This document shows, one piece after another, positions 7,556 to 61,224 of a DNA stretch of 64,000 bases; position 1 is the first letter of the stretch, and each line of letters opens with the position of its first letter. The notes below the pieces were generated by a model. The model was given only the letters and a program-made list of their open reading frames with translations, ran no database searches and was not told where the DNA came from. The DNA comes from an uncultured Gammaproteobacteria bacterium (GTDB taxonomy: Bacteria; Patescibacteriota; Patescibacteriia; Patescibacteriales; UBA12075), in NCBI GenBank assembly GCA_964459725.1, contig CAYWNT010000001.1, positions 155,529 through 219,528 of the forward strand, read 5' to 3'. A program made the translations under genes and the position numbers.

Positions 7556-7709
7556 AATATTGGGTAGCATTGGGTTGTTGTAAATTAATTAATTTATATT
7601 TTTATAAGTATTGGGCTCTAGACTTTTTTTATCAAAGAGGTATTATAATAGTAGGTGACTATATAATTAATTAATACACCCAAGAGCATTTCTTTTGGGG
7701 CGAAAAAAT

Positions 7710-8396
7710 ATGGGAAGATTTAATCGAGGAGATAATTTTGGCGGAAGAAAAAGGTTTGACAATGACCGTGGTTCCAGAGGGGGAGGAAGGCCCTCAATGC
7801 ATCAGGCCGTTTGTGATGAATGTGGCAAGGACTGCGAGGTCCCCTTTAAACCAACTGGCGATAAACCGGTGTTTTGTAGCTATTGTTTTGATAAAAAAGA
7901 AACTTCCAATAGTAGTCGGGCCGAAAGAAGGATCGCTGCAAGACAAAATCGTGGAGATAGGCAAATGTTTAGGGCTGTTTGTGATAAATGTGGCAAGGAT
8001 TGCGAAGTTCCTTTTAAGCCGTCTAGTGATAAGCCAATATTTTGTAGTGAGTGTTTTGGAAAGGGTGAAAAAGGTGCTAACAGGAATAAAAATGTTGCTA
8101 GCTCCGATCAATATAGCAAACAGTTTGAAATATTGAATAATAAGATTGATAATATTTTAGAAATGTTATCATCTGAAACTGAAGTCAAAAAAGAAAAACC
8201 CATTGCTAAAGCAATCAAAAAAACAGTTGAGAAAAAAACTGTAGCCAAGAAAGCTGCAGCTCCGAAAAAGGCTGCGAAAAAAGTTGCTGCCAAGAAGAAA
8301 GAAGTCAAGAAGAAGGTTGCTCCGAAAAAAGTTGTGAAGAAAGCTGTTGCCAAGAAGAAAGTTGTGAAAAAGACCGCAACTAAGAAAAAGAAATAA
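7710..8396 (+). CDS. tandem CxxC-x17-CxxC zinc-ribbon protein with Lys/Ala-rich histone-H1-like tail
   Basis: Two copies of CDxCGKDCEVPFKPxxDKPxFCSxCF, with exactly 17 residues between the CxxC pairs. The C-terminal roughly 70 aa is AKKAAAPKKAAKKVAAKKK... The start is moved to ATG 7710; the track uses an upstream TTG at 7695. Confidence 0.75.
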   Translation: MGRFNRGDNFGGRKRFDNDRGSRGGGRPSMHQAVCDECGKDCEVPFKPTGDKPVFCSYCFDKKETSNSSRAERRIAARQNRGDRQMFRAVCDKCGKDCEVPFKPSSDKPIFCSECFGKGEKGANRNKNVASSDQYSKQFEILNNKIDNILEMLSSETEVKKEKPIAKAIKKTVEKKTVAKKAAAPKKAAKKVAAKKKEVKKKVAPKKVVKKAVAKKKVVKKTATKKKK

Positions 8397-15458: not shown

Positions 15459-15674
15459 ATCTTTATAATAACGGTATTTTCTATAATATCCAATAGGGCA
15501 GAGCGAATATCTTATATCAAAAACTTAATAAATTTAAATAAGTCGCTCTTTAAAACAATTTTAATTTAATAAAATTAGGTTAAATTAAAAGTAATAAGTT
15601 TACCCGAAGGGCTAAGGTTGTAGCAGATTAAAACAAATAACTCGGTAGATTTCCAATAATTAGGAGGTGATGAC

Positions 15675-15923
15675 ATGAAAGCTTCAACACCGCAGATCAG
15701 CGATTATTTCGTAGTAGATGGACAAAGAGGCGTTATTTTGTTTGGTAATAACAGGAAAGCGCTTGTTAAAAGGTTGAGAGAAAAAGAAAAAGATATTGAT
15801 ATTAGTTCTATGGTTGTTTTAGAAGGATCTTGGGCATTGGATCCAGAAAATTTGGTATCGAATTTTTCTTATGGCAGATTATTGAAAAAGTATCTAGAGG
15901 ATCATGATTTAATTCCGAATTAA
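15675..15923 (+). CDS. small protein, paralog family member A (82 aa)
   Basis: AGGAGGTG SD. Shares P-x-I-SDYFVVD...GV-LFG and G-LLKK-L-D--LIP with 16019, 16347 and 17999. Confidence 0.7.
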   Translation: MKASTPQISDYFVVDGQRGVILFGNNRKALVKRLREKEKDIDISSMVVLEGSWALDPENLVSNFSYGRLLKKYLEDHDLIPN

Positions 15924-16018
15924 ATTAATGACTTATTTTTGTAATAACAGTGACTAAGAAATGTAAATCAATCTAGGAAAATAACTTTACTGATTTCTAA
16001 AATTCAGAGGAGGATGAT

Positions 16019-16261
16019 ATGGAAAATTTATCACCAAAAACTAGTGATTATTTCGCAGTACATGAAACGAGGGGAGTTGTTTTATTCGATTGCGATCAGG
16101 GAGAGCTTGTTAAGGAAGTAGAAGAAAAAGAAGATGATGTTGGTAGAATAGCAATTATAAAAGGGGAGTCAATTCTTAAGCCAAATATTTATTCGTCAGA
16201 ACTGTCTTATCATAAATTATTAAAACAGTTTATGCAAGATCAAGAGTTAATACCAAGATAG
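16019..16261 (+). CDS. small protein, paralog family member B (80 aa)
   Basis: GAGGAGG SD and the same conserved N- and C-terminal blocks. Confidence 0.7.
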   Translation: MENLSPKTSDYFAVHETRGVVLFDCDQGELVKEVEEKEDDVGRIAIIKGESILKPNIYSSELSYHKLLKQFMQDQELIPR

Positions 16262-16346
16262 GCAATTCATGATTCATTAAATAGAGCGATAACGAATTCA
16301 ACCAAGTTGCTCGTTGTAAGCCTGAAAAAGGGGAGGTGATTATGAT

Positions 16347-16622
16347 ATGGATTCTTTGTTGCCGCAAATTGATGATTATTTCGTGGTAGATGAGGAAGAT
16401 GGTGTTCTAATGTTTGGGCATAGCAGTAAAATGCTTCTTCTGGAGCTGGAAAAAAATTTTAATAGAAAAGAAGGATCTGATAGTATAATTATTATGAGAG
16501 GATCGAATGCATTGGACCCGAAAAGTATAATGTCAACCTTACCTCAGGGTAAATTATTAAAAAAGTTCTTGCAAGACTATGGGATAATTTCAAATTATCC
16601 AAAAATTTGCTTCAAGCATTGA
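16347..16622 (+). CDS. small protein, paralog family member C (91 aa)
   Basis: GGGGAGGTG SD and the same conserved blocks. A terminator follows at 16622..16655. Confidence 0.7.
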   Translation: MDSLLPQIDDYFVVDEEDGVLMFGHSSKMLLLELEKNFNRKEGSDSIIIMRGSNALDPKSIMSTLPQGKLLKKFLQDYGIISNYPKICFKH

Positions 16623-17998: not shown

Positions 17999-18242
17999 AT
18001 GAATACTTCATCTCCTAAAATTACTGATATATTTATTGTAGACCACAAGGATGGAGTATTAATTTTTGGTGATAATGAAAAGAAGCTTATTGAAGAATTA
18101 AAGAAAACGAAAAATTGATGTAGACGGTAGCGTAATTCTTTCCGCAGATTCTGTTATAAATCAGGAAACACCGGAAGCAAGATCAATTCATGGCAAGTTG
18201 TTAAAAAAGTTCTTACAAGATCATGGTTTGATTCCGGGTTGA
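17999..18242 (+). pseudogene. frameshifted fourth copy of the small-protein family
   Basis: ATG 17999 gives MNTSSPKITDIFIVDHKDGVLIFGDNEKKLIEELKKTKN, then TGA at 18116. The +1 frame from 18117 continues as DVDGSVILSADSVINQETPEARSIHGKLLKKFLQDHGLIPG, with a stop at 18240..18242. Deleting one T in AAAAATTGATG restores a full-length paralog. Confidence 0.65.
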
Positions 18243-18283
18243 TAATGGGTGCAAAATTAAACAAGAGATTATGGAGGTATTAA

Positions 18284-20707: not shown

Positions 20708-20753
20708 AATTTAATAGTACCTTTAATAGTACTATTAAAGGTACTATTAAATT
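20708..20753. repeat. 46-nt perfect palindrome AATTTAATAGTACCTTTAATAGT|ACTATTAAAGGTACTATTAAATT
   Basis: All 23 base pairs were checked individually. It lies directly after the canonical terminator. Confidence 0.95.
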
Positions 20754-25850: not shown

Positions 25851-28800
25851 ATGAATAATCAGAAAAATCAGCAGAAAAGGAGCTCTTTTCCGGACATGGA
25901 GAAGGAGGTTTTGGCTTTTTGGCAAAAGAATAATATTTTTGAAAAATCAGTTGAAAACCCACCCCACCCTGACGGGCATCCCTCCAAGGAGGGGACTCCG
26001 GTTGAGGATTATGTTTTTTATGATGGGCCTCCTTTTGCCACCGGACTACCTCATTATGGTCATATAGTCGGAACAATAATGAAAGATGTAGTGCCAAGAT
26101 ATTGGACAATGCAAGGCAAAAGAGTTGAGCGCAAATGGGGATGGGATTGTCATGGTCTTCCTATTGAGAATATTGTTGAGAAAGAGCTTGGATCAAAGAA
26201 GAAAAAAGACATTGAAGAGGGTGTAGGTGTTGCGAAGTTCAACGAGCTTTGTAGATCAAAGGTTTTAAGCTATGTTGATGACTGGGAAAAAGTAATAAAA
26301 AAAATTGGTCGATGGGCGGATATGAAGAATGCTTACAAAACAATGGACATTGAATACATGGAATCTGTCTGGTGGGTGTTTAAGGAACTCTGGGATAAGA
26401 ACTTGATTTACAAAGATCATAGATCTATGCATGTTTGTCCTAGATGTGAGACTACCTTGTCACAGTCAGAGGTGACAGAAGGGTATGCTGATATCAAGGA
26501 TTTGTCAGCGATTGCCAAGTTTGAGTTGGAGGATGATGGCCCTTCGGCAGGCTCAGGGCAAGCTAAAACTTTCGTTTTAGCCTGGACTACTACACCTTGG
26601 ACATTGATTGGAAATGTTGCCTTGGCGGTTGGTAAAGATATAGATTATGTAAAAGCTGGAATCAAGAATCAGGAATCAGGAGTTACAGATAATTATATAA
26701 TTGCTAAAGAGTTGGCAGAAAAAGTTTTTAAGGATAGGGAGTTTGATGTTGTTGAAGAATTTAAAGGAGAGAAATTGATTGAAAAAAAATATAAACCCCT
26801 ATTTGATTATTATTCATCTGATAAAAATCTGGAAAATAGAGAAAATGGATGGCAGATTTATGGAGCTGATTTTGTAACCACTGAGGAGGGCACAGGAGTA
26901 GTTCATATTGCTCCGGCTTTTGGTGAGGATGATATGAGATTGGGTCATGAAAAGAATTTACCTTTTGTGCAGCATTTAACTATAGATGGTAATTTCAAAG
27001 AGGAAGTAGCTGACTTTAAGGGACTCAATGTGAAGCCAAAGGATAATCACATGTCGACTGATATTGAGATTATCAAATACTTAGCTCATAATGGGTTACT
27101 TTTTCACAAGGAAAAATACGAGCATAGCTACCCGCATTGTTGGCGCTGTGATACCCCGCTTATCAACTATGCAACGAGTTCTTGGTTTGTAAATATTACA
27201 AAAATAAAAGATAGAGCCCTAGAGACTGCTAAAGATGTGAATTGGTCACCAGAACATATCAAGAGAGGTCGTTTTGGTAAGTGGCTGGAGGGTGCTCGTG
27301 ATTGGTCAATTTCTCGTCAGCGTTTTTGGGCTAGCGTAATGCCTATCTGGAAATGCGATAAATGTGCTGATACTAAAGTTTTTGGATCAGTTGAGGAGTT
27401 GAGTGAGCATTTTGGAAATCCAAATAAATTATATCTAGTAAGACACGGGGAGGCGGAACAAAATGTTGCGCATATTCTAAATTCTGACTTAAATAACAAT
27501 CATTATCATTTAACAGAAAATGGGCGAGAGCAAGTTGAAAAAACAGCTAAAGAACTAAGGGATAAAAAAGTTGATTATATATTTTGTTCTCCATTTTTAA
27601 GAACAAAGGAGACGGCAGAAATCATATCAAAAGATCTAGGTGTAGAAATAATTTTTGATGATAGATTAAGTGAATTTGGTGTTGGTGATTTTGAGGGGAA
27701 AAATCAAGAAGATTTTATGAGGGTTTTTTCTAATTGGCCGGAAGAGAATATAGATTTAAGAAAAAAACATGGTGTAGAACTTGAAAAAGAGGCAGAAGAA
27801 AGATTTTCTAGTTTCTTGAATGAATTAAATGAAAAACACAAGAACAAGAATATAGTTATTGTTTCTCATGGAGATCCTCTTCAGTTTATGTATAGCCTGT
27901 TACAGGGAGTCGATAGGATAAAAACTTATAGTAGTGAGTATTACTCAGAAAAGGGAAAATCTAAGTTTTCTTATTCAAGGCTTGTCGATCTCCATAAACA
28001 TATAGTTGATGAAATTAAATTTGGGTGTGATAAGTGCGATGGCGAGATGGTTAGAGTTCCTGATGTGTTGGATACTTGGTTTGATTCTGGATCAATGCCA
28101 TATGCGCAGATGCATTATCCTTTTGAAAATAAAGAAAAGTTTGATAATAATTTCCCGGCAGAATTTATAGCTGAAGGATCTGATCAGACCAGGGCCTGGT
28201 TTTACTATATGCACATGATTGCTAATGGAATTAAGGATAAAAATGCTTATAAAAATGTGATTGTAAATGGTATAGTGCTCGCTGAAGATGGAAAAAAGAT
28301 GAGCAAAAAGCTTCAGAATTATCCGGATCCAATGGAGTTACTTGATAAATACGGGGCTGATGCACTTCGTTATTATCTCCTTACATCTCCAGTGATGTTG
28401 GCTGATAATTTGAATTTTTCTGAAGACGGAGTAAAGGAGTCTCTTAGGAAGGTAAATATGATTCTTTGGAATGTGGTGAGATTTTATGATTTATTTGAAG
28501 ATAAGTCGAAAGTTTATAAAACCGAAAGACCAAATAGTGAGAATATCTTAGATCAATGGATACTGGCAAGACTAGATGAGTTGATTGTTGAGGTGGGAGA
28601 GAATATGGAGAAATATAATTTGCCAAAAGCAACAAGGCCTATAGTTGAGTTTATTGATGATTTATCTACTTGGTATATCAGAAGAAGTCGTGACCGATTT
28701 AAATCAGAACATGAGAAGGACAAAGAAAGTGCTTTGGCGACAACCGGGCATCTGTTAGTCGAGCTTTCAAAGGTGATGGCACCATTTACACCATTTATTG

Positions 28801-29402
28801 CGGAGCAAGTATGGCAAAAAATAATTGGAAATGATTTTAAAGATGAGAATAAATCAGTTCATTTGGAAAGTTTTCCTAAGGAAGAAAAAGGACATGAAGT
28901 ATCCGAGGTGAAAATAATTGAAAGAATGAGTATGGCCCGAAAGATTGTTGAGATGGGTCTGGCAAAACGTGATGAAGTTGGAATTAAAGTAAGACAACCT
29001 CTTAACGAATTACGAATTACAAATTTCGAATTAAGGGATGAATATGTTGACTTGATTAAGGATGAAATGAATGTGAAATCCGTTGTTAGTGAAAAAGGCG
29101 AGGGTGATATGTCGGTTGAGCTGGATACTGAGATTACACCTGAACTAAAATTGGAAGGGGTGAAAAGAGAATTGGTTAGATATATTAACGCCCAGAGAAA
29201 AAAACAGGATTTGTCTATTCGTGATTTTGTGGTTATTGAATGGCAAGGAGAAAAAGAAATCAAAAAGGCGTTTGATAAATTTAGTGAAGAAATAAAGAAA
29301 GAGACTTTATCTCTGGATATTGTGGAGAAAGAAAAGGTAGATGATGGAGTGAGTGTAAAAATAGAAGGAGAAGAATTAATTTTAAAAATTAATAAAAAAT
29401 AA
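25851..29402 (+). CDS. ileS: isoleucine--tRNA ligase (type 2) with internal domain insertion
   Basis: PHYGH (HIGH), KMSKK (KMSKS), the WTTTPWTL editing-domain block, and DWSISRQRFW. 1183 aa. Confidence 0.95.
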   Translation: MNNQKNQQKRSSFPDMEKEVLAFWQKNNIFEKSVENPPHPDGHPSKEGTPVEDYVFYDGPPFATGLPHYGHIVGTIMKDVVPRYWTMQGKRVERKWGWDCHGLPIENIVEKELGSKKKKDIEEGVGVAKFNELCRSKVLSYVDDWEKVIKKIGRWADMKNAYKTMDIEYMESVWWVFKELWDKNLIYKDHRSMHVCPRCETTLSQSEVTEGYADIKDLSAIAKFELEDDGPSAGSGQAKTFVLAWTTTPWTLIGNVALAVGKDIDYVKAGIKNQESGVTDNYIIAKELAEKVFKDREFDVVEEFKGEKLIEKKYKPLFDYYSSDKNLENRENGWQIYGADFVTTEEGTGVVHIAPAFGEDDMRLGHEKNLPFVQHLTIDGNFKEEVADFKGLNVKPKDNHMSTDIEIIKYLAHNGLLFHKEKYEHSYPHCWRCDTPLINYATSSWFVNITKIKDRALETAKDVNWSPEHIKRGRFGKWLEGARDWSISRQRFWASVMPIWKCDKCADTKVFGSVEELSEHFGNPNKLYLVRHGEAEQNVAHILNSDLNNNHYHLTENGREQVEKTAKELRDKKVDYIFCSPFLRTKETAEIISKDLGVEIIFDDRLSEFGVGDFEGKNQEDFMRVFSNWPEENIDLRKKHGVELEKEAEERFSSFLNELNEKHKNKNIVIVSHGDPLQFMYSLLQGVDRIKTYSSEYYSEKGKSKFSYSRLVDLHKHIVDEIKFGCDKCDGEMVRVPDVLDTWFDSGSMPYAQMHYPFENKEKFDNNFPAEFIAEGSDQTRAWFYYMHMIANGIKDKNAYKNVIVNGIVLAEDGKKMSKKLQNYPDPMELLDKYGADALRYYLLTSPVMLADNLNFSEDGVKESLRKVNMILWNVVRFYDLFEDKSKVYKTERPNSENILDQWILARLDELIVEVGENMEKYNLPKATRPIVEFIDDLSTWYIRRSRDRFKSEHEKDKESALATTGHLLVELSKVMAPFTPFIAEQVWQKIIGNDFKDENKSVHLESFPKEEKGHEVSEVKIIERMSMARKIVEMGLAKRDEVGIKVRQPLNELRITNFELRDEYVDLIKDEMNVKSVVSEKGEGDMSVELDTEITPELKLEGVKRELVRYINAQRKKQDLSIRDFVVIEWQGEKEIKKAFDKFSEEIKKETLSLDIVEKEKVDDGVSVKIEGEELILKINKK
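25957..25995 (+). repeat. GC-rich bipartite hairpin element, copy 1 (in frame in ileS)
   Basis: ACCCACCCCACCCTGACGGGCATCCCTCCAAGGAGGGGA. Related copies lie at 46922..46960 and 59451..59495. Confidence 0.85.
27426..27986 (+). other. histidine-phosphatase (PGAM-type) domain inserted within IleRS
   Basis: LYLVRHGEAEQN...LTENGREQ...FCSPFLRTKETAEII...IVIVSHGDPLQ lies between ...SVEELSEHFGNPN and DLHKHIVDEIKFGCDKCDG. Confidence 0.8.
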
Positions 29403-43355: not shown

Positions 43356-43447
43356 CACATAACATGTAACACATAACATGCAACAAAATTCAAAAAGCGA
43401 AGCTTTTTGATGGTCATTGTTATGAGTTATGTGTTATGAGTTATGTG
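43356..43447. repeat. long composite inverted repeat: CACATAAC-type 14-mer arms around a CAAAAAGC-GAA-GCTTTTTG hairpin
   Basis: Left arm 43356..43384, core 43391..43409, right arm 43415..43447. The arms are imperfect reverse complements. Confidence 0.85.
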
Positions 43448-46347: not shown

Positions 46348-47466
46348 ATGTTTATGAAATTAATCGAATTAAACAAAGAAAAATTAGATAATTTTTTAGC
46401 TAATCAGGACAAATCTCAGTTTTTGCAGTCTTTTGAGTGGGGAGAATTTCAGGAAAAGACTGGTTTGGAAGTTTTTAGATATGGCGTGGAAGAAAATGAA
46501 GAATTAGTGGCAGTTGTTTCTTTGATCAAGAAAAATCTTGGAATTGGGAAGAGTTATTTTTATGCGCCGAGAGGAGTCGTGTTTAGTCATAAAGTCATAA
46601 AGTCAAAAGTCGCCCGCCTGCCGGACGGGCAGGAAAGTGTTTATAATTTTTTATTTAATGAGATAGAAAAAATTGCTAAAAAGGAAAATTGTATATTTCT
46701 CCGTTTTGAACCGCACAGAAAGTCAAAAGTCGCCCGCCTGCCGGACGGGCAGGAAAGTCGAAAGTCGAAAGTTATTAAAACTATCGATTTGCAGCCGGCG
46801 AAAACTTTGATGTTGGATTTGGGAAAATCAGAGGAGGAACTTTTGCAAGACATGCATCAGAAGACTCGGTATAATATTCGACTTGCGGAGAAAAAGGGCG
46901 TTGAGGTGGTAGAGGTTGATTACCCACCCCGGCCTGATGGCCACCCCTCCAGAGAGGGGAATTTATTTGAGGAGTTTTGGAAATTGATGAGTCAGACTGG
47001 AGGTCGTGATGGATTTCGGCTACATTCTAAAAATTATTACAAAAAAATGCTAGATGAGTCGAAAGTCTATAAAGTCGAAAGTCGAAAGTCTGAAGTTGAT
47101 TTAAGTATAAAATTGTTTCTGGCGAAGTATCAGGGGGAGGTGATTGCTGGAAATATTATTTCTTTTTTTGGAGATACTGTGACCTATATGCATGGTGCAT
47201 CATCTAATGAGTATAGAAATGTGATGGCTCCGTATATTCTTCAATGGGAAGTGATAAAGGCGGCAAAAGAAAAGGGGTATAAATATTATGACTTTTTTGG
47301 GATTGATAAAGATAAGTGGCCGGGAGTGACTAGATTCAAAGAAGGATTTTGCGTGAAAAATCTGGAAAAATGCCAAGTGACTTATCCAGGTACATTCGAT
47401 TTGGTGTTTAGTAAAGTGTGGTATAATGCATATAACATCCTTCGAAGAATTCGAAGAGTGTTATAA
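46348..47466 (+). CDS. FemAB-family peptidoglycan interpeptide-bridge aminoacyltransferase
   Basis: FLQSFEWGEFQ, YAPRG, TRYNIRLAEKKG, YMHGASSNEYRNVMAPYILQWE, YDFFGI. It contains several in-frame repeat insertions. Confidence 0.8.
   Translation: MFMKLIELNKEKLDNFLANQDKSQFLQSFEWGEFQEKTGLEVFRYGVEENEELVAVVSLIKKNLGIGKSYFYAPRGVVFSHKVIKSKVARLPDGQESVYNFLFNEIEKIAKKENCIFLRFEPHRKSKVARLPDGQESRKSKVIKTIDLQPAKTLMLDLGKSEEELLQDMHQKTRYNIRLAEKKGVEVVEVDYPPRPDGHPSREGNLFEEFWKLMSQTGGRDGFRLHSKNYYKKMLDESKVYKVESRKSEVDLSIKLFLAKYQGEVIAGNIISFFGDTVTYMHGASSNEYRNVMAPYILQWEVIKAAKEKGYKYYDFFGIDKDKWPGVTRFKEGFCVKNLEKCQVTYPGTFDLVFSKVWYNAYNILRRIRRVL
46600..46638 (+). repeat. 39-nt AAAGTC + GC-hairpin element, copy 1
   Basis: AAGTCAAAAGTCGCCCGCCTGCCGGACGGGCAGGAAAGT, identical to 46720..46758. 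Confidence 0.95.
46720..46758 (+). repeat. 39-nt AAAGTC + GC-hairpin element, copy 2
   Basis: Exact copy, offset by exactly 120 nt (40 codons) from copy 1. Confidence 0.95.
46922..46960 (+). repeat. GC-rich bipartite hairpin element, copy 2 (in frame in the FemAB-family gene)
   Basis: ACCCACCCCGGCCTGATGGCCACCCCTCCAGAGAGGGGA. Confidence 0.85.
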
Positions 47467-48973: not shown

Positions 48974-49288
48974 AAATGGACAATTATATTGACATATTTA
49001 AAAAAATTTGTTTATATATATTAACAAATTATTTTAGATTGCTAAAAAATAGTTAATGTTTGGAGAATAAATAAAACGAGAAATCGAATTCGAGAAAATT
49101 TATGTTATGAATTCGTTTTTTTTATTTTCCCAATATTGGCACAATATCCTCATGCAACTTGGAATTAATTGATATTCGAGTGGTTACTATTTTTAATTAA
49201 ACTTACTCCCCGGGAACGGGGCACGACTCAAGCCGCATAGGCGTTGAGATTTTTTTATTTTCAAATATTTAATAATTTTAATATAAAT

Positions 49289-59296: not shown

Positions 59297-59450
59297 ATTT
59301 TTATTTTAAACTAATAATATAAGAGATTCGATAAATTAATTTGGATAATTCCCATCCTTGGAGGGGAATGTTTATTTTTTGCCCAAAGGGCTGAGAAAAA
59401 TAGACTCGGGGTGGGTCAAGGATCGTTGAATTTTAACTATTTTATTGTTA

Positions 59451-59495
59451 ACCCACCCCGCCAGGCTTCGCCTGCCCGCCCCTCCGAGGAGGGGA
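59451..59495. repeat. GC-rich bipartite hairpin element, copy 3 (intergenic)
   Basis: ACCCACCCCGCCAGGCTTCGCCTGCCCGCCCCTCCGAGGAGGGGA. Its ACCCACCCC also pairs with GGGGTGGGT at 59408..59416. Confidence 0.85.
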
Positions 59496-60831: not shown

Positions 60832-61224
60832 TTACTCCTTGGAGTTTTTATCAATTATTGATGAAAATATTTTTACCAGTTCGAATGATTCTTGAATTAA
60901 TGGTTGGATATCTTGTGAAAAATTTTGGTTTCCATGTAGTAATAATTCAAGCCAATACTTACTCTCTTTCGATTCTTTTCTTGAGATTCTAAGTCTGTGT
61001 AAAAAATCTTTTTTGCTAATTGCTTCGTTTGCCTCTCTGTAGTTTGCTCCTACGGAGCCTGTTGATCTTATAAATTGTTTTTTGTATTCAATGGTTTCGA
61101 TCGTATTGGGAATAATTTTTGACAAATTGAAACAATTCTTTGCAAAATTCAAAGTTCTTTCTTCGAGATCAAAAACTTTATTATTTGAATTATTGGTCAT
61201 TGCTTGGTGATTAATATTTGGCAA
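60832..61224 (-). CDS. four-helix-bundle protein (23S rRNA intervening-sequence protein family)
   Basis: Pattern QFIRSTGSVGANYREANEAISKKDFLHRLRISRKESKESKYWLELL. Confidence 0.8.
   Translation of the reverse strand: MPNINHQAMTNNSNNKVFDLEERTLNFAKNCFNLSKIIPNTIETIEYKKQFIRSTGSVGANYREANEAISKKDFLHRLRISRKESKESKYWLELLLHGNQNFSQDIQPLIQESFELVKIFSSIIDKNSKE

Follow-up and report, generated by a model that had tools for sequence, protein, structure and literature searches.

The window analysed here, a stretch of 64,000 nucleotides (nt) from a metagenome-assembled genome of the Patescibacteria (assembly GCA_964459725.1, contig CAYWNT010000001.1, positions 155,529 to 219,528), holds four copies of a small GC-rich element in which a C-rich box is followed by two hairpins, one variable and one invariant. 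Two of the copies are inserted in frame in protein genes, one in the essential gene ileS, which encodes isoleucyl-tRNA synthetase (IleRS), the other in a cell-wall gene of the FemAB family, and the same architecture was found at more than 240 public loci, the matches listed spanning at least 11 phyla as well as phages. On balance we lean, without great confidence, towards viewing the element as a palindromic repeat of selfish, non-coding DNA, of the same kind as REP/BIME elements (repetitive extragenic palindromes) but with a new tag, which would spread through folded single-stranded DNA by means of a trans-acting activity and whose genic copies would be passengers.

Architecture and distribution of the element

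The sequence-only reading had described the ileS copy and two relatives of it. All three are real, the third being intergenic as described, but a fourth copy had been missed. Copy 1 (25957-25995, plus strand, GC-rich, 39 nt) reads ACCCACCCC-ACCCTGACGGGCAT-CCCTCC-AA-GGAGGGGA; it comprises a 5' box (25957-25965), a middle hairpin CCC-TGAC-GGG (25967-25976), a 3' hairpin CCCTCC-AA-GGAGGG (25980-25993) and a terminal GA (25994-25995), and it scores 56.1 bits with a covariance model of the element. Copy 2, in frame in the FemAB-family gene (46922-46960, plus strand, 39 nt, 59.4 bits), follows the 5' box with GGCC-TGAT-GGCC and CCCCTC-CAGA-GAGGGG. In copy 3 (59451-59495, plus strand, 45 nt, 38.3 bits, E 4.5e-08) the box precedes CAGGC-TTC-GCCTG and CCCCTCC-GA-GGAGGGG-A, and near-identical versions of its middle hairpin are present in other metagenomes. 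The additional copy 4 (59350-59416, minus strand, 67 nt, 16.3 bits) is a stretched version, whose three modules, ACCCACCCC (59416-59408), GCCC-TTT-GGGC (59391-59381) and CCCCTCC-AA-GGATGGG-A (59366-59350), are separated by AT-rich spacers of 16 and 14 nt. Copies 3 and 4 form a head-to-head inverted pair, 34 nt apart. With two copies in genes and two in non-coding DNA, the element does occupy both spacers and genes, as had been proposed. The similarity claimed between the two genic copies also stands, although our count gives 32 identical positions of 39 rather than the earlier estimate of about 31.

The window has a GC content of 36%, and the copies belong to about 11 sharp GC islands within it (at least 75% GC over 24 nt). 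There are four matches to the combined pattern ACCCACCCC-N12-42-CCCTCC, where 100 dinucleotide-preserving shuffles give an expectation of 0.00, and the 3' unit alone gives eight strand-matches against 0.09 expected; ACCCACCCC with at most one mismatch, taken alone, is not significant in the window. A covariance-model search of the window with filters off, together with about 7 kb of extra flank, found no full-length copy beyond these four. A genome scan using one genome per species and the pattern ACCCACCCC-N6-36-CCCTCC-NNN-GAGGGG returned at least 120 loci.

Carriers were found among Cyanobacteria (Okeania, Phormidium, Chamaesiphon, Nodosilinea and Prochloron) and Bacteroidota (including Chitinophagaceae, Alistipes, Balneolales and Ignavibacteria), and further in Calditrichota, Planctomycetota, Verrucomicrobiota, Kiritimatiellia, Lentisphaerota, Acidobacteriota, Binatota, Nitrospirota, Chloroflexota and Latescibacterota; isolates bearing it include Nodosilinea nodulosa PCC 7104, Lacibacter sp. 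MH-610 and Mucilaginibacter flavus, and a phage scan found it on 22 phage contigs. Annotated plasmids gave no BLAST match to the element, a negative probably due to the low-complexity filter. Copy 1 is identical to a Phormidium copy at 35 of 39 positions, and copy 2 to a Nitrospira copy at 36 of 39. The middle, which the search pattern leaves unconstrained, is in most matches a short GC hairpin, such as GCCC-TTC-GGGC, GGCCC-TAC-GGGCC or GTCGAC-TTC-GTCGAC, and two other classes exist, a short one with only TNAAT and, in Chitinophagaceae, a long one with an AT-rich hairpin. An independent metagenome scan, in which the two boxes were not both fixed, was seeded with the middle hairpin and 3' arm only (GCCCTTCGGGCACCCCTCC) and again gave at least 120 loci. 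Here CCACCCC stands upstream in 131 of 133 copies, preceded by A[A/C], and the downstream order is a loop of 3-5 nt, GGAGGGG and then A(A/T)TT, beyond which the flanks are random; the GC content of the host contigs ranges from 0.30 to 0.73.

The unit can thus be written as A[C/A]CCACCCC, a variable hairpin, and A-CCCCTCC-loop-GGAGGGG-A, about 38-40 nt in all. When 37 distinct copies of 36-42 nt were aligned, 91.9% of the positions expected to pair in the two-hairpin structure did so, compared with 84.9% in shuffles. In the middle helix four pairs vary on both sides, yielding 24 compensatory cells against 8.3 in shuffles, a count reached by 0 of 500 shuffles and by none of the slid controls, all of which were lower; the 3' helix is invariant and hence uninformative on structure. 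Because the middle stem shows compensatory change once many copies are compared, it is the structure rather than the peptide that is conserved, just as the earlier note had argued from three copies. The stems of 76 middle hairpins contain 355 Watson-Crick pairs, a single G.T, three A.C and eight other mismatches, and stems almost free of wobble pairs are more in keeping with a DNA palindrome than with an RNA helix.

Individual copies differ in how well they fold. Copy 2 alone folds clearly better than shuffled sequence (z = -3.7) and copy 3 is intermediate, whereas copy 1 alone folds no better than its shuffles (DNA fold z = 0.07). It departs from the consensus by an A.C at the foot of the middle stem, where a pair is lost, and by a T in CATCCCTCC, in the 3' arm. 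The hairpin that had been proposed for ileS is therefore present in its modules, but looks like a slightly decayed one. The complementary strand is G-rich and carries four G-tracts (GGAGGGG...GGG...GGGGTGGG); with DNA parameters, ViennaRNA predicts a quadruplex as the minimum-energy fold for copy 1, for the consensus and for the short class, approximately isoenergetic with the hairpins.

In-frame insertions in IleRS and FemAB

The ileS gene (25851-29402, plus strand) encodes 1183 residues, and copy 1, translated as N-PPHPDGHPSKEG-T, falls in the loop that joins the N-terminal helix to the strand running into the HYGH (HIGH) motif. In an alignment of IleRS N-termini the insert is missing from about 115 of 120 Patescibacteria orthologs, the spacer from KSVE to DYVFYDGPP usually being 6 residues in these 120 proteins and 17 in that of the window, and solved IleRS structures (7d5c, 1ile and others) align with a gap in the same place, after the N-terminal helix and before the HIGH-motif strand. 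Copy 2 lies in a FemAB-family gene (46348-47466, plus strand) of 372 residues, in which further repeat-encoded in-frame inserts are present, and is translated as Y-PPRPDGHPSREG-N, with YPPRPDGHPSREG as residues 192-204. None of the 13 orthologs aligned, at 56-66% identity with the window protein, has this 13-residue peptide; its one other occurrence is in a variant of 91% identity from the same sample, the DNA of which does not differ from that of the window anywhere in the element. In an AlphaFold model (mean predicted local distance difference test score, pLDDT, 78), FemAB residues 192-204 form a low-confidence coil (pLDDT about 56), falling between a strand (186-190) and a helix (202-221). 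Both genic copies are thus true in-frame insertions relative to orthologs, as the sequence-only reading had supposed, and both reading frames stay intact despite them.

The IleRS loop has received such elements more than once. Related elements occupy this loop, ahead of the HIGH motif, in four other IleRS orthologs: P0005 (L150, 3160-3200) carries CACCCCACCACCCC-TAA-CCCCTCC-TCGCAA-GGAGGGG, P0006 (L149, 3100-3150) carries CCCCCC-AG-CCCCC-TTTATCAA-GGGGG, and P0060, the closest relative of P0006, is also among them. Since the nearest relatives of the window IleRS and of P0005 are without any insert, the loop must have been struck independently at least three times in Patescibacteria by related elements made of a C-box plus hairpin. 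With other short inserts at the same place in further orthologs (RRAQDKPLN in P0015, and one in P0117), the loop is a hot spot for insertions.

Gene content and best homologues assign the window to a Patescibacteria genome from a metagenome. An assembly artefact is unlikely, since the same IleRS and the same copies recur on other contigs. The exact 1183-residue IleRS, insert included, is present on five contigs, one of them from sample SAMN10231914; contigs from SAMN10231913, from JGI 3300007511 and from a Logan run match other parts of the window, and the JGI contig has copies 2, 3 and 4 unchanged.

The two host proteins show other peculiarities. Residues 527-688 of the IleRS (window 27429-27914) form a complete histidine-phosphatase domain (Pfam His_Phos_1, E 1.4e-36) placed between two tRNA-synt_1 matches, which is unusual for an aminoacyl-tRNA synthetase. 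The FemAB gene contains a second, unrelated GC-rich hairpin repeat, AAAGTCGCCCGCCTGCC-GGAC-GGGCAGGAAAGT, twice in frame (46596-46638 and 46716-46758), encoding KSKVARLPDGQES, and both peptides are low-confidence loops in the model. In L144, a variant from the same sample, the first of these two copies is swapped for a AATTTTCAATTTTC simple repeat. L144 is about 85-88% identical to the window upstream of roughly 46716 and then nearly identical over 10.7 kb, and this switch (46716-46725) coincides with the second copy of the hairpin repeat; either recombination at the repeat or a chimeric assembly could have produced it. Runs of a GAAAGTC unit also lie in frame in the FemAB gene (46753-46775 and 47058-47095), encoding ESRKSKV and VESRKSEV, a further low-complexity insert that falls in a loop of low pLDDT (residues 240-248).

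In both copy 1 and copy 2, each exactly 39 nt long, the first A occupies codon position 2, so the shared codon phase that had been reported holds for the window. It is no rule, however, since genic copies in other genomes are found in other phases and also on the opposite strand. In Prochloron, a 48-nt palindromic variant lies in frame in an open reading frame (ORF) of tnpB (L017, 7131-7178) and encodes ...RRTQ-PTPPSPPLLGGGVGGWV-GHS..., and in a large methyltransferase-like ORF of Bacteroidales (L037, 924-991 and 2001-2032) tandem antisense copies encode PLLGGGQGVGSS. This bears on the view that selection acts on the encoded peptide, with its PPxPxGxPSxEG motif, or that the resemblance is one of GC-rich 9-mers by chance. 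The shared phase and similar peptides of the two window genes could be read that way, as could the failure of ACCCACCCC to reach significance alone, yet half of the window copies and most of those elsewhere are non-coding, those in genes elsewhere use other frames and the opposite strand, the combined pattern has a chance expectation of zero, and the peptide is missing from orthologs and sits in a disordered loop. We consider a peptide-level or chance explanation extremely improbable and effectively excluded.

All six frames of the 39-nt element are free of stop codons. Given this, a length of 39 nt and a position where a surface loop tolerates them, the copies in ileS and FemAB would be neutral passengers, that in ileS already decaying. 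Genic copies in general may survive only where the frame is kept and the landing is in a tolerant surface loop, and would then have been filtered by selection into such loops, as proposed for Rickettsia palindromic elements and intragenic REPs. The recognition of such inserts has practical value, as it accounts for odd Pro/Gly-rich peptides in annotated proteins (PPRPxGxPSxEG and, antisense, PLLGGGQGVG, both observed here) and flags insertion-tolerant loops in IleRS and FemAB.

Relation to known repeats and possible modes of spread

The closest parallel we found is with the REP/BIME/REPIN repeats, which are mobilised by RAYT/TnpA_REP HUH-Y1 transposases and occasionally lie in frame inside genes without breaking them (PMC3116915, PMC3733652, PMC6006769). 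Like these, the element is a short palindromic repeat of 20-40 nt with many copies, mostly extragenic, and a conserved unpaired tag beside the hairpin, and like these it occurs as inverted doublets or alternating clusters (PMC3116915), the pair 59350-59416 (minus) and 59451-59495 (plus) being an example. The published superfamilies are defined by GTAG (GT[AG]G) or CGTC tags at the foot of the hairpin (PMC3733652, PMC6006769), whereas the tag here is A[C/A]CCACCCC and stands 5' of the hairpins; CCAC, which is complementary to GTGG, does occur within it, but a canonical REP would have this on the other side of the hairpin. Unlike a REP, moreover, the element has two hairpins, and its copies are almost identical across phyla, where REP families are usually species- or genus-specific. 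It is not in the REP table of Quentin et al.

The earlier note had instead likened the element to the Rickettsia palindromic elements (RPEs). Ogata et al. are said to have described these in 2000 as palindromic repeats lying in frame in protein genes, including essential ones, and also in non-coding DNA. RPEs measure about 100-150 bp (30-50 residues) and are confined to Rickettsia and its relatives. The analogy is sound in kind, since here too the element is in frame in protein genes, some of them essential, adds a peptide at a tolerated loop position and occurs in non-coding DNA as well. It differs in being 39-67 nt long (13 residues), of unrelated sequence, and present in many phyla with a Patescibacteria genome as the host here; it is thus not lineage-specific, and its profile is nearer to REP/BIME. 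A further likeness is to the double-hairpin elements of fungal mitochondrial DNA, reportedly described by Paquin et al. in 2000, and to the GC clusters of yeast, which are also tiny GC-rich two-hairpin units scattered in an AT-rich genome with in-frame copies, and in which structure is likewise conserved more than sequence. Those are, however, organellar and unrelated in sequence, and have no invariant C-rich box.

If the element is indeed a selfish repeat, it would be copied or moved as DNA, passing through an intermediate of folded single strand, and a trans-acting activity would recognise its two invariant modules, the C-rich box and the CCCCTCC/GGAGGGG hairpin. It would then land mostly between genes, often as inverted pairs. 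Its mobility is suggested by its distribution. Its arrangement elsewhere is that of REP/BIME/REPIN elements: among neighbours within 150 nt of one another, 46 are inverted (29 tail-to-tail and 17 head-to-head) and 14 direct, 193 of 369 copies are singletons, and 40 sites are full palindromes.

Several results weigh against such a mode of spread. No transposase or other mobilising gene is among the annotated genes of the window (Pfam calls), so that a RAYT gene, as expected for a REP, was not found there, and tblastn gave no match to RAYT or IS200 TnpA in 1.9 Mb of element-flanking DNA, although, with the IS200 TnpA and E. coli RayT sequences used as queries, this negative is weak. No window copy is flanked by a direct repeat that could be a target-site duplication, and the flanks of 285 copies contain no conserved target motif. 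The analysis found no empty-site allele: L144, the only close relative, does not differ from the window across the FemAB copy. Middle hairpins differ between the copies of one genome, which is not expected of recent bursts from a master copy, and near-identical copies in phyla of 30-73% GC are hard to square with ordinary selfish spread and could mean a conserved host function. Contigs of the same population, L145, L146 and L148 from other samples and L144 from the first sample, show no difference in any copy that they cover and are uninformative on gain or loss.

A number of more specific identities were tried and set aside. A TTG found 3-6 nt upstream of all four window copies could have been a target motif, but it vanishes in the 285 copies elsewhere, and a miniature inverted-repeat transposable element does not fit, as the window copies are without target-site duplication and the 285 copies without a conserved flank motif. 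The element is not an IS200/IS605 end or a TnpB omega-RNA region: a weak TnpA-like fragment and the apparent TnpB matches, three in all, near three cyanobacterial copies stem from a different shared GC repeat, GCGAAGCTTTGCGAAGC..., and in Prochloron the element is inside the tnpB ORF and not at its end. Prochloron has another GC-rich repeat, ATTGCGAAGCTTTGCGAAGC...CCGCCCTTGGCGTCCCGCC (L119, 590-700; L017, 6890-6965), which translates as LRKLCEA...ALGVP and gave false TnpB similarity between loci. Against Rfam 15 the window has no match at gathering score, and permissive scans gave sub-threshold hits only, such as sot2652 (42 bits against a cut-off of 61), which reflects GC hairpin pairs. An origin from tRNA 3' ends was considered on account of a GGTTCGA-ACCCACCCC flank in two loci, but this forms no T-arm and there is no tRNA in the window. 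A triple helix, finally, might be imagined, as the 5' box and GGAGGGG run parallel, but a pyrimidine-motif triplex would call for a base other than the A of the box.

In a different explanation the element would be structural DNA or RNA with a function for the host that is conserved across phyla, for example a bidirectional terminator, an mRNA-stabilising hairpin pair or a hairpin/G-quadruplex switch, and its genic copies would be accidents. Copies elsewhere are mostly intergenic, about one fifth of the classified copies being inside ORFs, and the intergenic ones are typically 30-120 nt from gene ends (context was assigned with a crude gene caller, at loci of at most 56% GC). Such a function would agree with this placement, with the extreme conservation of both boxes across phyla whatever the host GC, with the four G-tracts and the predicted quadruplex, and with the variation of middle hairpins within a genome, which would suggest old copies kept by selection. 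As in intrinsic (Rho-independent) terminators, a GC-rich hairpin is followed by a few T and commonly lies downstream of genes, and the 3' hairpin of copy 3 with ACTTTCTT scores as terminator-like. The element is nevertheless not a convincing intrinsic terminator, because the 3' flank, A(A/T)TT, is no proper U-tract and orientation is random, and the extra 5' box, the second hairpin and the copies inside ORFs are also unlike one. Copy 3 was the only copy to pass a simple terminator scan, and did so on the strand opposite to both flanking genes. With the flanking genes as arrows and the element as E, we counted 33 <E<, 22 >E>, 16 >E< and 11 <E>, approximately random proportions with both orientations represented, so that divergent promoter regions are occupied too. 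Copies inside essential ORFs and phage genes, the near-absence of G.U pairs and the lack of an Rfam match likewise speak against a host function. An all-against-all ORF comparison of 142 loci revealed no recurrent gene family near copies, only ABC ATPases, histidine kinases and pentapeptide proteins, and no relatives of the PF05635 and GIY-YIG genes of the window were found near other copies. We regard a host function as the main rival, though a rather unlikely one.

One could also speculate that no enzyme is involved, and that short GC-rich palindromes give rise to copies when replication or repair leads to template switching or gene conversion between them, the hairpins nucleating such events and being perfected by intrastrand correction. 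This would explain why the stems are perfectly Watson-Crick paired yet diverse in sequence, and would be in line with the lack of a transposase, target duplication or target motif noted above, with the repeated gain of different GC hairpins by the same IleRS and FemAB loops, and with the second hairpin family in FemAB, at one copy of which the divergence between window and L144 switches. It leaves unexplained, however, the invariant 9-nt box and 7-bp stem across at least 11 phyla and the occurrence of the same 38-mer in unrelated genomes and phages, and we regard it as improbable.

In-frame palindromic repeats as such are known already, from RPEs, intragenic REPs and mitochondrial double-hairpin elements, and are normally confined to a genus or family. 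What is unusual here is an element of about 40 nt that is near-identical in at least 11 phyla and in phages whatever the base composition of the host (30-73% GC), its 9-nt box and 7-bp stem kept letter for letter while the hairpin in between covaries. A limited literature search with the DNA strings, the peptides and in-frame repeats of the candidate phyla radiation (CPR) found no description of it, catalogued or otherwise. If horizontal spread of the selfish repeat is true, it would be an unusually small and promiscuous genetic parasite; if instead it is functional, it would be an unrecognised, widely conserved nucleic-acid signal in the phyla least studied by experiment (Cyanobacteria, Bacteroidota, PVC, Acidobacteriota and Patescibacteria). 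The boldest version, a pan-bacterial, horizontally spreading mini-element of about 38-40 nt that is able to colonise essential genes such as ileS and is read by a widespread single-stranded DNA enzyme, for instance of an uncharacterised HUH-Y1 class, or by a host function based on a hairpin/quadruplex switch, we put forward only as a tentative and somewhat doubtful possibility; such an element would be smaller and more widely shared than any mobile or selfish DNA so far described.

Other features of the window

The remainder of the window contains further repeats and genes of some interest. A gene of family PF05635 (23S rRNA intervening-sequence protein, or Avd-like four-helix bundle; 60832-61224, minus strand) lies inside a pyruvate:ferredoxin oxidoreductase cluster, with no reverse transcriptase nearby. 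Three to four tandem paralogous small ORFs of 80-92 residues, recurring about every 338 nt, occupy 15670-16622 and approximately 18194-18246; both their 5' and their 3' ends are conserved, and they match nothing in Pfam. Within ORFs that overlap 7695-8396, a 95-nt segment is duplicated 168 nt apart with 77% identity (7796-8058).

Other palindromic or inverted structures are present as well. A perfect 46-nt palindrome without spacer, AATTTAATAGTACCTTTAATAGT / ACTATTAAAGGTACTATTAAATT, lies between the thyX-like and zinc-ribbon genes (20708-20753), and the spacer upstream of ruvA (43356-43447) holds two inverted arrays of ACATAAC-like units, in which the forward arm CACATAACATGTAACACATAACATGCAACAA faces its approximate complement. 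A GC-rich hairpin, CTCCCCG-GGAA-CGGGGCAC (49206-49229), stands just upstream of the TTG start of rpoB (49244).

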